64,000 nucleotides of DNA from a plasmid: assembly GCF_058153355.1 (NCBI RefSeq), contig NZ_JBLWLY010000002.1. One strand, 5' to 3'. This document shows, in pieces, positions 34,101 through 40,100 of the stretch (positions are counted from its first letter, which is position 1; each line of letters begins with the position of its first letter). The position numbers are program-made.

Positions 34101-37100
34101 TCACATCCATATTTCCGGTCAACTGCCCATGAAAGATAACAGGCTGTTTGGCACGCTCTGCCAGAATCCGGTCTTTTACTGTCTGAATGGCTTTGTTTTT
34201 ATCAGTACCAACAAACTCCCATTGTTTCGGGTCATTCAGGCTGTTTCCCCACAAAGTGTTACCATAGGTGGAGGATTTCAGAATATAAAAACGGGTCTGA
34301 TTATTAAGTGTCATACTGTACAAATTTCCCGGCGTTCCCGAACCACCAAATGGAGAGATATTGCCTACAGGAACGCTGACATCTGTATCCATAGCCTTCA
34401 GTTCAAGCAAAAGACGAGATTTTTGCTGTGCATTATTTGTAATAACAGCCCCATAATCGGCTGCAAGCAATCGGCTGAAGGTAACAGCATTGCCGTTAAG
34501 GTCAAGTGTACCTCCCCGGTATCCCCATGAAATATTATCCGGATTGACCTGGCGTGCATCCCCGAGAACCACAGTCGGGCGTCCGCTGGCGAGGTTCACG
34601 GAACTGAAAGCCTGAACATTGCCTGCGGCATCTTCCTGCTGGTTCAGGACAACTGTACCGTCCCCCGTCTTAAGTCCGCCCGGGTTTACCCCCGATCCGT
34701 TCATGACCAGTGTCCCTTCTCCCAGTTTATGCAGGTTATCACCGGCAACGCCATTCACTTTCCAGGTCACTTCAGCCCCTTTGTCTGTTATAATGCCAGC
34801 GCCTGTCCATGTTTTTCCAGATTCAGCTGATACAGTGTAAGAGTCTTTAAACTCCAGATAGCCAGCGCCCTGTGTCACACTGTCTTTCAGAACAATTACT
34901 CCGTTATCTCCACTGAACACCAGATTTTTACCCGCATTGAGGTCATTCCCTTTCTGCCCATGCATGACCCAGTTTTTATTTCCCTGACTCAGGGTGCCTG
35001 TACCAGATGTTTTGTCATATGTCCAGTTAAGAGGTCCCTGTTCGGAAGCCAGATTTACAGGAGAATCGAAATCTTCCAGCATGACCTGATTCAGGTAATC
35101 AGTTGGTATGACATCCCACCAGTTGGTTGCTCCATTGGGACCTGCATACGCTCTTAATACAGCAACAATAACCCATTTTTTTTGTAAAGCATCATAAGCA
35201 AATAAAGGCGAACCACTGTCACCCGGGGCTCCGTAGTTCGGTAATGGCCCGTTTACAGGGTTATATGTTTGCCCGGGGTTAGAAACTATTGTTGTATTAG
35301 ATATTAGAGGAATGCCGATGGTTCCGCCTGTTTTAAAAGCATATCCGCCTGCAATGCTGGTTAATTTCCCGTCCTTGTCTTTTGTGTACTGAGTACCACT
35401 GCCAATCCGATAAAAAGCAGTGTAACGCTCGGTATTTTTATAAGCATTGCTTTTGGTTCCTTCATCTGTAACTGCCGAAGGAATAACTTCGGTAACCAGT
35501 TTATTCAGACGTGGGGCATGGAAGTCAACATAAGGGTGGTTATTACGGTCAACAAGGGAATATGAGTTTTTTCCGTTTCCAAATCCAACACTCTGGTATC
35601 CACCATTATGTTTTACGCTGACGATATACTGAGGAGACACCAGCGTGGCAACTCCATTGGAGCTTACGCTGCTGAAATCGGTCACTGGAGCTTTATCCAG
35701 TCGGCCAACAAGTTTTCCATTTTTGTCATATACTGGAATATCTGTGGCACCAGGCACAAAAAGTCCTTTATTTTCTGCAAAATCCCGGTAAATCTGATAG
35801 GAGATATCTGAACGAACAATACCAGCCTCTGATATCGCCGGATATAACAAACAGAGAGCAGGAGCAGCGATTAATGATATTTTTAACTTTAGCTCTGTTT
35901 TTTTTATTATGCGACTGGCAAGCTCAGATACGGCAATAAGCCCTCCTGTAGCAGGGCAATACTTAAGGGAATAGATTTTGTTCACAACAAGTTCTCCATA
36001 CTATTCACAGATACAATGAATGCACAAATAAAAACAGTGATAACATCTAGTTATCACAAAGGAAGTGTTGAACGCTGATATGTCATTATCATCTTAGAGT
36101 ACTTGACATGCTGTTATTTTGTAATGATCCCATATATGGAAGATAAATTCTGTGAGGAGGTTTTTAATTTTCTATACAAAACTGATCTGAGGTGTACTGG
36201 CAATAGCGGACACCACCATTTGTTCTTTTTCTAAGCAGTCATCTGATAATATTTTATCCTGAAGGCTGCCGGGGAGATATTCCCCAGACGAGAGTGACGA
36301 CGCTGACGATTGTAGAAAATCTCAATGTATTCCCGTATTACTGAGATGGCTTCATCCCGGCTCTTAAAACGATAGTGGCTCAGGCTTTCATTTTTCAGCG
36401 TTCCCCAGAAGCTTTCCATCGGAGCGTTGTCGTAACAGTTACCTTTACGCGACATTGATGTTTTCAGACCAGACTGCTCCTGTATGACCCGGTAATCGTA
36501 TGCGCAGTACTGTGAACCTCGCTCGGAGTGGTGGATTAGCCCGGCAGGTGGGCGCTGGCTCCTGAGCGCCATAAACAGGGCTTTACCCGTCAACTCTTTC
36601 GTCATGCGCTCTCCCGTGGCGTAACCGACAATTTCGCACGTATAAACATCTTTGACGCCGGCGAGATACAGCCATCCTTTCCGGGTGGCAACATACGTTA
36701 TATCTGCGACCCAGACCTGATTAGGTGCTGTGGGCGTAAAGTTCTGATTCAGCAGATTCGGCGTAACCGGCAGATTGTGGTCAGAGTTTGTGGTCGCCCT
36801 GAACTTGCGTTTCTGCTTACAGTGCAGCCTCAGCTCCTTACGAAGACGTGCCAGTCTGTCACGACCGACGATAATTCCGTTATCTGCCAGCTCCGTCTGG
36901 AGCCGCCGGGTTCCATATGTTTCGCGAGTGCGGATATGTGCCACCTTAATCTCCAGTTTTAGCCGCTCATCACTTTGTTTTCTGTCTGAGGGGGCATGCT
37001 GTACCCAGTCGTAATAACCGCTCCTGGATACACCAGGTACCCGACACATCGCTTCAACAGGGAATTGTTGTCGCCATTGTTCGACTAACGCGTATTTTTC

Positions 37101-40100
37101 AGCGACTCCCGGGCAAAATACGCTGTTGCTTTTTTTAATATATCTCGCTCAAGTCGTGCTTCATTTAAAGCCTTACGCAGTTGCATAACTTCCAGCCACT
37201 GTGCGGGAGCCAGGTGTATTGAGCCCTTTTCTTGCGGCGGTAACCCATTGTCCTAAAGTGCCTTCAGGAACAGATAATCGGGAAGCGCCTTCACTGAGCG
37301 AAAGCTGATTTTCAGGAACCGTTTTGACGGCTTCGGCTTTAAACTCCGTAGAGTAACGTTGGGTTTTTCTGCTCATTATTGGCTCCTTCTGATGCCATTC
37401 TATTTCAGGAAGGAGTGTCCGTTAAACTCAGGCTACCTCACGCTTCAGGCGGGCATTTTCAGCGGCCAGTTCACTTTCACGCTCAGACGAGGTCATCTGT
37501 TGCTGCAGTTTGCTGCGCCACGCATAGAGCTGAGATTCATACAGGCTGAGTTCACGGGCTGCGGCAGCAACACCGATGCGTTCAGCAAGCTTCAGGGCTT
37601 CACTGCGAAATTCAGGCGAATGCTGTTTACGTGTTTTTTTGCTGGTTGATACTGTTTTTGTCATGTGAGTCACCTCTGACTGAGAATTTACTCACTTAGC
37701 CGCGTGTCCACTATTGCTGGGTAAGATCAATTTGCTCACTGGTATTTACTACGTGCATCGAATGAGTGATCAAGAGCCGTATGACGCGAGAGTGTCACGT
37801 ACGGTTCCGTGAGCAGCCGGAGAGTGAAACTCTCTCCGGCTGACTCGACTCGCAGGTTCCGACAGCGGTGATGAACATGCAGCGGTGTTGTTCTCGCTGA
37901 TCGGCACATGCCGTCTGAACAATGTGGAGCCAGAAAAATGGCTGCGTTACGTTATTGAATATATCCAGGACTGACCGGCAAACCGGGTACGCGATCTGTT
38001 GCCCTGGAAAGTTGATCTGACTTCTCAGTAAATATCAATATGATTCTGACGAGCCGCTTACCTTTGAACAGAGAAAGGGGAGAGGGATCCCACATCCATG
38101 AGCTAGGAAAATACAAAAACTGGCTATACAACAATTCAATATATTAGGACTTACTTGCGAGGAGAAATATAGCACCGCTCAGGCAATTCTTGGGTATTTA
38201 CTTTTCTTAGTTTCTTTACTCGGGATGTTCTGTCATCAGAAAGGCGATTCTAAATTTGTAATATAGTCACTCATATTCCCACGTAATTTCTTTAGATCAA
38301 TATATTGCACATTTTTCTCAAAAAACTGATCGGAAATAAGATTTGCAACATTGCTTGTTGTATCATTTTTAACGCTTCTATTCATCCCTTCACAAAGTTC
38401 GTCCATTTTCTTTTTGAAATAACTGCTTCCTGATACAAGATGATTTATGGAACTTTGTGCAGCATTGATGTCTAGAGAAATGCGATAATCTTTCTCAACC
38501 TGTTTAAATATCTGTTTACGGAGGTTATCGCCGATTTCTCGGCTGTGTTCTGCACAAAACTTATCAATACATTGGTTTACCACCCGGGATACGTAGACTT
38601 TTTTTTCATCATTTTTCCAATCTGTAATATTTTCACCGATTTGTTCTGAAACAGAGCTCAAAATACTAGTATTTATTTTGGTTGATGATATTTTTACTAT
38701 CCTTTTCCCCATTGTACAGCGGATAATCTCATCCACCTTTCCTGAAAAATATCTTTTGTGAGATAAACTGATTCCAAAATTATTAAAAGATGTTCCAAGC
38801 ATTATAATCACTTTGTCATGTAAAATAGTAACATTGTCATTATTTTAGCTGATTCAAACAATTCTGTAAATGCTTTGAGTTCTTTACTCCCTTGGCTCAA
38901 TGATGGACCGTCTGGAATCCCAGAGACTAAACTCTCTGAGAAAGAGAGTATGAAAAAACTTGGGGCAGTCCCTAAATGAAGGGACCAACAGCGGTAAAAT
39001 AACCGGCATCATTCATAATGATGCCCTGTTAGTTGTAGTTATGAAGATTTACGTCATTAAAATTGCTGTTCGTAGTGTCAGTCCTATGGTCTGGCATCAG
39101 CTGAGGATCGTAGCCGATACATCACTGGCTTCACGACATTCGTGTTGAGGCTATTCATGAAAACTCCACGCAGAAAACGCCGTTTTGTATAAACGGTCAC
39201 GGTATGCCCGGAGCCACTGTTGCTGATGAATTCGATAAAACCTTGGCGTTTCTTGAAGCTATCGTTAATGCGGATAATGAAACAACGATAGGTGAGATTC
39301 GCTCTTTTGCCGACGCCCTGGACGCTGTCCGGTTCAATCGCAACAAAATCAACCGGCAGCTGAGCAAACCCAACCTTGCCTCTCTGGCGCTGGAGCATGA
39401 AGTGATTTGGCTGGGACGTAGCCGCTGACAGCTTCTATAAAAGTATGATCCTACCCACGTAATATGAACACAGGCTTAAGCGAGGTTCTGGTTTTCAAAT
39501 TGTTCAGGACTGAGACCTCCACACCAACTGTGCCGTCGTCAGCGATTGTAATCGCACTTGATATAATTAAACACTGTGTATTTCATTTGTGGAGTCTCCA
39601 GTCTGAGGGGGCTTTATGCATTCCGTATTGGGCACTATGATGCCAGAAATCTGCGAGGCTCCACACCTTCCTGTATTTCCCTTCCTCTATCACAGTGCAC
39701 TTTACTTAATAGGGTGGGATGTGTTCATTACATTTATTGTGTTTTTTATGATTGTTTTTGCGTCCAGTGTCGTTCGTCATGGGAAACTGGTTCTATGGGT
39801 AGTATCGCTCAGTCTAGTTAACTGTTTGTTTCTTTTTAGAAATTAAGCAGATCACACAATTCGGGGAGAGATCCTTCTAAGTGCAATTCTTTGCAGCTAT
39901 TTAGCACACTTAAAACAACTCTTGTATTTTGTCAGAAATAATATTAAACGTGTCTTGTTCATTATTGTTAAGTCTGTCTGCTATTTCTGTAAGTTTTATC
40001 CCACTATGATGGCATATATTTATATATGCCATCATAGCCTCGATATTCCCTTTCCCTGCGGCCAGAAATAATCCTGGTAAACCCTCATTATCTCTTACAT

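Follow-up and report, generated by a model that had tools for sequence, protein, structure and literature searches.

A probable mobile-element scar composed of IS600, IS3H, group II intron, and IS679-like pieces beside ipgB2 on an invasion-type plasmid

Content and borders of the locus

We analyzed a 64-kb (64,000-nucleotide) stretch of plasmid DNA, hereafter called the window. Alignments, BLAST searches, Rfam, and protein profiles showed that four mobile-element pieces adjoin each other across 36188..38061 in the order IS600, IS3H, group II intron, and IS66-family (IS679-like) element. The presence of these pieces by chance is ruled out by the BLAST E-value (E = 2.7e-149 for the 333-bp intron-plus-exon match). 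A preliminary description of this DNA had already recognized the pieces, their adjacency, and their order, and its coordinates and both ends for IS600 stood; the inner borders required correction. The IS3-like left end and orfA start, placed at 37441..37738, stop at 37729; the intron tail, placed at 37739..37845 (~107 bp), spans 120 nt; and the IS66 right end with the tnpC 3′ exon, whose end at 38061 was correct, begins at 37850 and not at 37846 (Table 1).

Table 1. Features at and around the four-piece locus (window coordinates)
Feature	Position	Strand	Remarks
Pic-like autotransporter (SPATE) gene	31873..35985	-	
Left flank of IS600	35986..36187	.	202 bp upstream of Pic-like autotransporter gene; not IS3 sequence
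IS600 variant, 1253 bp	36188..37440	-	both terminal inverted repeats; end-to-end alignment with S. sonnei IS600
IS600 orfB open frame	36231..37049		within minus-strand IS600
IS600 truncated orfA	37173..37376		within minus-strand IS600
IS3H (IS3 family) nt 1-289	37441..37729	-	left inverted repeat (terminus 37729) and ~first 75 orfA codons, ATG 37664
E.c.I3 group II intron, last 120 nt	37730..37849	+	domain IV 3′ tail, ~12 last codons of intron-encoded protein, domains V and VI
IS66-family (IS679-like) tnpC 3′ exon and right terminal repeat, 212 bp	37850..38061	+	aligns with three other copies
Conserved right flank, spacer and ipgB2	38062..38811 (ipgB2 38236..38811)	-	99.6% identical to S. sonnei pINV
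Other IS3-family fragments	39446..39577, 42026..42689		~81-93% matches
IS679-like element with full-length E.c.I3	44359..48869	-	both terminal repeats
Full-length E.c.I3, 1824 bp	46394..44571	-	5′ GUGUG ... AC 3′; length equals published copies
E.c.I3 intron-encoded protein	44651..45883		within minus-strand intron

The IS600 copy matched the IS3-family transposase profile NF033516 (E = 1.7e-97) and has a second copy at 56309..57561, with 100% identity across 1253 bp. Like Shigella IS600 (IS3 family, 1264 bp), it carries both inverted repeats, and it shows about a dozen other differences from the S. sonnei copy. It departs from Shigella IS600 in having no 3-bp duplication and in the loss of 11 bp (AGCTGGAATCT) from orfA, between 37191 and 37192 (IS600 nt 249/250), relative to the 1264-bp S. 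sonnei copy, which accounts for its length and qualifies its earlier description as complete. Because of this deletion, OrfA ends at 67 aa instead of 100 aa. The deletion also brings orfA and orfB into one frame, with stops between them, and the geometry of a −1 frameshift was not found. All three IS600 copies in the window share the deletion, which was found in no PLSDB plasmid.

The IS3H piece is 288/289 identical (99.7%) to IS3H nt 1-289 of pSS_046 and matched the N-terminal part of NF033516; its S. sonnei and S. dysenteriae orthologues are labeled in RefSeq as "IS3-like element IS3H family transposase." Translation showed that the orfA frame reads on across the junction into the end of IS600 and terminates at 37428; an exact-protein look-up of this hybrid IS3H-OrfA/IS600 ORF in the gene catalogue returned nothing. 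Beside ipgB2 in S. sonnei pSS_046 and S. dysenteriae pSD1_197, the same element has the same joint to the intron remnant but is complete (1261 bp), whereas here nt 1-289 alone are present and end at the IS600 terminus. In the single S. boydii record inspected (pBS512_211), IS3H at this locus is internally deleted.

The intron piece consists only of the last 120 nt of the intron; the GUGYG 5′ end, domains I-IV, and the reverse transcriptase/maturase ORF were not found. The proposed homology with the intron at 44571 was borne out by an identity of 116/120 with the intact intron 3′ end (44571..44690) and by an Rfam match to RF00029 (domains V/VI) at 37772..37849, covering the full model (1-77) with 56.5 bits (threshold, 40; E = 4.7e-9). 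Comparison with intron-less copies showed that the insertion site in tnpC (...CTGGCTCT / intron / TCGCGGG...) is identical to that of the intact copy, in agreement with the earlier proposal that a second, now destroyed, intron-bearing IS66 copy once existed. The exon piece itself shows 93.4% identity with the intron-bearing copy and with two copies in the window that lack the intron, closes at 38061 with the family terminus ...CGCTTAC (family repeat GTAAGCG...), and carries a TGG>TGA stop in tnpC that is common to the Shigella orthologues (S. sonnei and S. boydii).

The remnant maps exactly onto NC_007385 19693-19812 and NC_007607 21615-21734, intervals catalogued as E.c.I3-tr3, a 120/122-bp fragment found on five Shigella virulence plasmids (Leclercq & Cordaux 2012, PLoS One 7:e52268, Tables S2/S3) and known from invasion plasmids of S. 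flexneri, S. boydii, S. sonnei, and S. dysenteriae (Leclercq & Cordaux 2012). Sequence and place are the same, with 95-96% identity to full-length E.c.I3 and 99.2% to the S. sonnei orthologue; the fragment itself shows no difference, only the neighboring IS3H being cut by IS600 in the present plasmid. Segment 37730..37849 is thus the published E.c.I3-tr3 and already known. A literature search for a group II intron in pWR100 found no papers.

On the right, the conserved flank, whose S. sonnei pINV counterpart is annotated ipgB2/ospD1, encodes a product that matched the WxxxE effector family (E = 7.7e-51) and anchors the locus to the Shigella/EIEC-type invasion plasmid (pINV). On the left, the protease segment found no match above 82% nucleotide identity in PLSDB plasmids or complete E. 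coli genomes; its other public sequences are 4.5-kb short-read contigs only. Draft assemblies with the Pic-like protease include GCA_015332025.1 and SRR8656992. The plasmid in the window was also seen to retain F-type transfer genes. A promoter and terminator scan of 35900..38300 predicted four promoters and three terminators, compared with 3.2 and 2.3, respectively, in shuffled sequence, and thus revealed no excess.

The full-length E.c.I3 copy elsewhere in the window

E.c.I3 homes into IS679, and full-length copies of 1824 bp are known, for example, in E. coli ED1a (Leclercq & Cordaux 2012). The intact copy in the window is the same intron, with the same tnpC homing site and length, whereas the remnant at 37730..37849 keeps the last 120 nt alone. 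It matched RF00029 at 44571..44648, RF01999 (91.9 bits), and, through its encoded protein, TIGR04416 (394 bits), while the TnpC of its host matched NF033517 (E = 1.7e-127). This copy is possibly active. Its pINV orthologues, E.c.I3-tr2, have lost their first 37 nt along with a part of tnpC, and this 37-nt 5′ truncation is common to all known pINVs. The occurrence of a full-length E.c.I3 within a complete IS679-like element, against truncated copies in known pINVs, is an observation of more interest than the scar itself.

One-sided joints and the alternatives

The preliminary description had read the locus as a four-layer nested stack, with IS600 inside IS3 inside the intron inside IS66. The pieces and their order agree with that picture, but the nesting does not: each inner element keeps its host on one side only, so that an "X inside Y" arrangement is not demonstrable at any of the three levels, and host-flanked nesting was seen in the window solely at the separate intact intron/IS679 copy. 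Nor did target-site duplications, for which that description had looked to the junctions, appear at either testable joint. The 3-bp flanks of IS600 differ (GCG upstream of the left end and GAT downstream of the right end), and the right-end flank is DNA upstream of the Pic-like protease gene, not IS3. In the pINVs examined, complete IS3H copies have AAG next to IRR and ATT next to IRL, and the IRR side adjoins unrelated DNA, not intron, in every case. An 8-bp target duplication is impossible for the IS679-like remnant because its right end alone survives. The sequence is therefore best described as a run of one-sided IS-end joints with deletions, not as four intact concentric insertions.

Nothing in the stack is predicted to be still able to move or splice by itself, since domains I-III and the bulk of the protein gene are gone from the intron piece, a single end remains of IS679 and likewise of IS3H, and IS600 is unable to make full OrfA or an OrfAB fusion. 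We are quite confident, if short of certain, that the locus is a non-functional mobile-element scar beside ipgB2 on a Shigella/EIEC-type pINV that would have arisen via successive events.

Three other explanations were weighed. The adjacency of SPATE, IS600, and IS3H could be an assembly mis-join across identical IS600 copies, the true locus being a plain IS600 insertion in IS3H; this idea draws on the identity of the two copies and on the public short-read contigs, which do not bridge IS600 (the aligned one, L003, corresponds to 31643..36185 and ends 2 bp short of it). We consider it highly unlikely: the reciprocal junction is absent from the window, the flanks of the copy at 56309..57561 contain neither IS3H nor a GCG duplication, swapping flanks restores no duplication, and the long reads usual for such a repeat-rich contig would easily cross a 1.25-kb repeat. 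Inversion between the two inverted IS600 copies was likewise considered and rejected, as the flank swap yields no 3-bp repeat and no IS3H continuity.

True four-level nesting by clean insertions, with the complementary halves surviving on the other side, is a very faint prospect. The layer order and the complete IS termini at the joints are as expected on the visible side, and intron-in-IS66 nesting is real in the intact copy; however, no IS3 lies left of IS600, no intron lies left of IS3H in other pINVs, and the 3-bp flanks are unlike at both joints. Moreover, the remaining IS3H and the ancestral left neighbor are absent from the window, which contains just the diverged matches to other IS3-family fragments listed in Table 1, and its sole other E.c.I3 is a separate copy, so the lost 5′ intron part is absent too. 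Least probable of all is that the 120-nt piece is a 5′-truncated abortive retrohoming product (from incomplete reverse transcription) and not an IS-cut one, for although bacteria often harbor intron remnants (a count in Enterobacteriales gave 111; Leclercq & Cordaux 2012), the break falls exactly, to the nucleotide, at the intact IS3H terminus (37729/37730), the expected IS679 5′ exon is not joined upstream, and the same IS3H/intron joint is kept across pINVs.

Order of events and value as lineage markers

The relative age of the joints could be read from other plasmids. The segment 37441..38160 was matched at 99.0% by 30 S. sonnei and S. dysenteriae pINV records, all matches starting exactly at 37441, and the S. 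boydii, S. flexneri, and EIEC records matched from 37712 onward. Since the IS3H/intron/IS679/ipgB2 layout is 99% identical in these 30 plasmids, it is ancestral. The IS600 joint occurs in none of those 30 records, and the uninterrupted IS3H at the S. sonnei and S. dysenteriae locus indicates that this joint came later. The earlier notion of successive insertions thus holds as to layer order, but the joints themselves are one-sided and accompanied by deletions. No other complete record contained the IS600/IS3H joint, and no record among 72,556 plasmids and 5,426 E. coli genomes spanned the whole stack. EIEC and S. boydii matches to 36354..37729 (98%) were rejected as a common IS600/IS3 joint: they represent a different locus near spa40, in which an IS1 fragment lies between the IS600 and IS3 elements and the break point differs.

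Scar formation can be pictured in three steps. E.c.I3 would first have retrohomed into the normal tnpC site of an IS679-like IS66-family element; for the destroyed copy, we infer this from the site it shares with the intact one. The left end of IS3H then joined the intron 120 nt from its 3′ end, a junction that is directly visible although its mechanism is presumptive, with loss of the first 1704 intron nt and of the greater part of the host IS (about 2.5 kb), either in the same event (IS-mediated adjacent deletion) or later. This step predates the split of the known pINV lineages, the remnant then being carried passively with ipgB2. Finally, in a lineage-specific step whose junction is equally visible and whose mechanism is again presumptive, the left end of the orfA-defective IS600 joined IS3H nt 289, its right end adjoining DNA 202 bp upstream of the Pic-like protease gene.

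Because IS600 ends on IS3H nt 289 and on DNA upstream of the protease gene, what remained of IS3H would have been replaced, together with its ancestral neighbor, through an IS600-associated deletion or IS600-IS600 recombination. Two orders may fit equally well: IS600 inserted into IS3H, followed by deletion, or IS600 resided first by the protease gene and then underwent intramolecular transposition into IS3H. Alternatively, the step could have rearranged the DNA, for example by inversion, without losing the missing halves, which may then sit outside the 64-kb window; should IS3H nt 290-1261 occur elsewhere in the replicon, or GCG+GCAACTGGCGG follow the right end of an IS600 there, inversion or translocation and not deletion would be indicated. 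As a tentative proposal that we hold with less than even confidence, the IS600/IS3H joint might be a recombination scar that placed the Pic-like protease segment (31643..36185) by ipgB2, the plasmid being an early-branching pINV with F-type transfer genes and full-length E.c.I3.

In the invasion plasmids pWR100 and pCP301, a large share of the DNA reportedly consists of whole or partial IS elements that interrupt one another, and the locus described here is a typical example of this mosaic, to which the present plasmid adds the IS600 joint and a Pic-like protease segment missing from known pINVs. Nothing in the three inner layers is new, the intron remnant having already been catalogued. With a catalogued 120-base remnant at its core and nothing but the outermost IS600 joint specific to this plasmid, the stretch is ordinary: it is IS debris of a familiar kind, whose sole use is to mark lineages. 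In that role, the locus supplies ordered, irreversible markers: the IS3H/E.c.I3-tr3/IS679 joint links the plasmid with the ancestor that all pINVs share, and the IS600 joint and the 11-bp-deleted IS600 variant specifically mark its lineage. Together with the untruncated E.c.I3, these markers could help to place the plasmid in pINV evolution.

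Pieces and borders of the stack

The stack beside ipgB2 (36188..38061) was read directly within 35900..38400 and compared against the rest of the window, and all four adjacent pieces named in the preliminary description were found (see table). Borders were set by aligning the fragment with the intron-bearing copy elsewhere in the window, two intron-less copies, and the S. sonnei orthologue. The IS3-type terminus (...GGTAAGATCA) lies at 37729, with homology to the intron from 37730 on; the intron 3' terminus (...GACTCGAC) lies at 37849, the tnpC 3' exon begins with TCGCAGG at 37850, and the stack ends at 38061 with the IS66-family terminus (...CGCTTAC). 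Of the stack, the two intron-less IS66-family copies (11115.. and 29171..) match only the part from 37850 on. The borders first placed at 37738/37739 and 37845/37846 were thereby moved by 9 and 4 bp, to 37729/37730 and 37849/37850, and the intron remnant, put at ~107 nt, measures 120 nt; with these small corrections the original observation was confirmed. Rfam RF00029 (group II intron domains V/VI) matched 37772..37849 with 56.5 bits (threshold 40). The IS3-like piece is identical at 288 of 289 positions to nt 1-289 of a 1261-bp element annotated as IS3H in pSS_046, the S. sonnei invasion plasmid (pINV), and in the exon remnant a TGG codon has become a TGA stop, as in S. sonnei and S. boydii.

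Coordinates of the stack and of related features in the window
Feature	Position	Strand	Remarks
F-type conjugal transfer genes (traJ, traK, traB, others)	20000..31140		about 94% identical to E. coli IncF plasmids
IS66-family terminus ...GACGCTTAC	31640		
IS679 right end	31650..31710		61 bp
IS66-family terminus ...GAGTCGGTTAC	31729		
Pic-like autotransporter gene	31873..35985	minus	1370 aa; segment 31643..36185
IS600	36188..37440	minus	matches copy 56309..57561 at 100% (1253 bp) and partial copy 63441..63725 at 100% (285 bp)
IS3-family left end	37441..37729	minus	left inverted repeat and orfA start (ATG at 37664)
Intron 3' end and IS66-family exon/end	37730..38062		94.6% to reverse complement of 44358..44690, E = 2.7e-149
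IS679-like element, both terminal repeats	44359..48869		contains full-length E.c.I3
Full-length E.c.I3	44571..46394	minus	1824 bp; 5' GUGUG, ends AC
E.c.I3 intron protein	44651..45883		410-aa ORF, intact

The IS600 had been called complete; both ends are there, but 11 bp (AGCTGGAATCT) are missing from orfA relative to a 1264-bp S. sonnei copy. OrfA is shortened from 100 aa to 67 aa, and orfA and orfB no longer stand in the frame relation required for the frameshifted fusion transposase. This deletion is common to all three IS600 copies in the window, which are otherwise 100% identical, and was found in no IS600 among PLSDB plasmids. The occurrence of a defective IS600 in several identical copies implies that the variant moved in trans or spread by segmental duplication. 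The partial copy starts 46-47 bp into the terminal repeat of a different IS3-family element (TGATCCTACCTACATAATATAGACAC...; 63395..63445), the second place where IS600 adjoins the end of an IS3-family element.

Arrangement of the pieces

A mis-join in the assembly, between the identical copies of IS600, is very unlikely, as the reciprocal junction is absent within the window. Slightly less probable still is simple four-level nesting, the literal reading proposed at first (IS600 inside IS3 inside a group II intron inside IS66). The DNA left of IS600 (up to 36187) is not IS3H but 202 bp lying upstream of the Pic-like gene; the 3-bp flanks of IS600 are GCG and GAT, and therefore a target duplication is absent. 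Swapping its flanks with those of the inverted copy at 56309 restored none. In S. sonnei, S. dysenteriae, and S. boydii, the DNA beyond the other end of IS3H is the same unrelated AT-rich sequence (...cagggcgtaag) and contains no intron, and the IS3H flanks mismatch there (AAG versus ATT). The remainder of IS3H was not found within the window; since the only other E.c.I3 there is a separate full-length copy, the remnant's lost 5' part is absent as well. With one-sided hosts for IS600 and IS3H, missing duplications, and no complementary halves in the window, the stack is not nested as intact concentric insertions. Every joint falls exactly on an IS terminus, which fits transposase-made junctions with deletion accompanying or following them.

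The exon junction of the 120-nt remnant is the same as that of the intact intron, so the remnant is what is left of a second host-IS copy that carried the intron, which supports the destroyed IS66-type copy postulated earlier. Abortive, 5'-truncated retrohoming is the least probable source of the remnant, because the break falls on the end of IS3H and the remnant lacks an attached 5' exon.

Age and distribution of the joints

On the right, the stack is flanked by ipgB2 and ospD1, in a region that shares 99.6% identity with the S. sonnei pINV. In 30 S. sonnei and S. dysenteriae pINV records, 37441..38160 was matched at 99.0%, in all of them starting exactly at 37441, the IS600 boundary; in S. 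boydii, S. flexneri, and EIEC records the match begins at 37712, and in the one such record read (S. boydii pBS512_211) an internal deletion leaves 18 bp of the IS3H left end. This common layout, together with the shared TGG>TGA change, indicates that the IS3H/intron/IS679 joint is older than the known pINV divergence. The IS600 joint was found in 0 of 72,556 plasmids and 0 of 5,426 complete E. coli genomes, and the hybrid ORF that it makes has no entry in the gene catalogue. The successive events originally claimed are thus supported, the IS600 joint being confined to this lineage, and the earlier interpretation as a whole is partly supported. A match at the spa40 locus of NZ_CP119442.1 (5009..6829) was rejected as the same joint because its break points differ: in the pINVs of EIEC, S. 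boydii, and S. dysenteriae, the DNA downstream of spa40 contains adjacent pieces of three elements, namely a truncated IS600, a fragment of IS1, and a left end resembling that of IS3H, and the resemblance to the window's joint is an effect of joined BLAST pieces.

E.c.I3 targets IS679, an IS66-family element, and its listed full-length copies are 1824 bp (Leclercq & Cordaux 2012, PMC3522654). The supplementary tables of that study contain "E.c.I3-tr3", a 120/122-bp fragment 95-96% similar to E.c.I3, on virulence plasmids of S. flexneri 301, S. boydii CDC3083-94 and Sb227, S. sonnei Ss046, and S. dysenteriae. Its coordinates in NC_007385 (19693-19812) and NC_007607 (21615-21734) correspond exactly to 37730..37849, so the remnant is already known. 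We suggest that tnpC of an IS679-like element beside ipgB2 received E.c.I3 by retrohoming, an event inferred from the site, and that an IS3H left end then joined the intron at a point 120 nt short of the intron's 3' terminus. The intron's first 1704 nt and about 2.5 kb of the host IS, the larger part of it, would have been lost at once through IS-mediated adjacent deletion, or later; the resulting state is ancestral to pINV. In this lineage only, the orfA-defective IS600 connects IS3H nt 289 to the Pic-like gene's upstream region, a link that would have arisen by IS600-associated deletion or recombination between IS600 copies. The stack is without present function, and no part is autonomous. 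Its core is not new: it is catalogued as E.c.I3-tr3 and belongs to the IS-mosaic nature of pINV reported by Buchrieser et al. 2000 and Venkatesan et al. 2001. The stack itself is of low interest.

The full-length intron and the plasmid lineage

More interesting is the full-length E.c.I3. Rfam placed its domains V/VI at 44571..44648 and the domain I-IV model at 46205..46321, and TIGR04416 (394 bits) identifies its protein as a group II reverse transcriptase/maturase. The intron-less copies, in which the exon sequences are continuous, place it in tnpC between ...CTGGCTCT and TCGCGGG... In all PLSDB pINVs the orthologue shares its IS110-type 3' flank, but the intron's first 37 nt and part of tnpC are missing; this shortened copy was published as 'E.c.I3-tr2' (PMC3522654). 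Since those copies are shortened and the window copy is full length, this plasmid may have kept the ancestral, possibly active, state.

The Pic-like segment and the F-type transfer genes are likewise of more interest than the stack. The Pic-like serine-protease autotransporter shares 86.6% aa and about 82% nt identity with plasmid-borne pic, and no gene of higher identity was found in PLSDB plasmids or 5,426 complete E. coli genomes. The segment was matched exactly only by two ~4.5-kb short-read contigs (GCA_015332025.1, SRR8656992), and one aligned contig spans 31643..36185 and ends at IS borders. At its left border, three IS66-family termini lie within 100 bp (31630..31729). The F-type transfer genes adjoin invasion-plasmid effector genes, an unusual arrangement compared with classical Shigella pINVs, which have largely lost such genes. 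Together, the full-length E.c.I3, the Pic-like segment, and the F-type transfer genes suggest that the host plasmid represents an unusual, possibly early-branching, pINV lineage.
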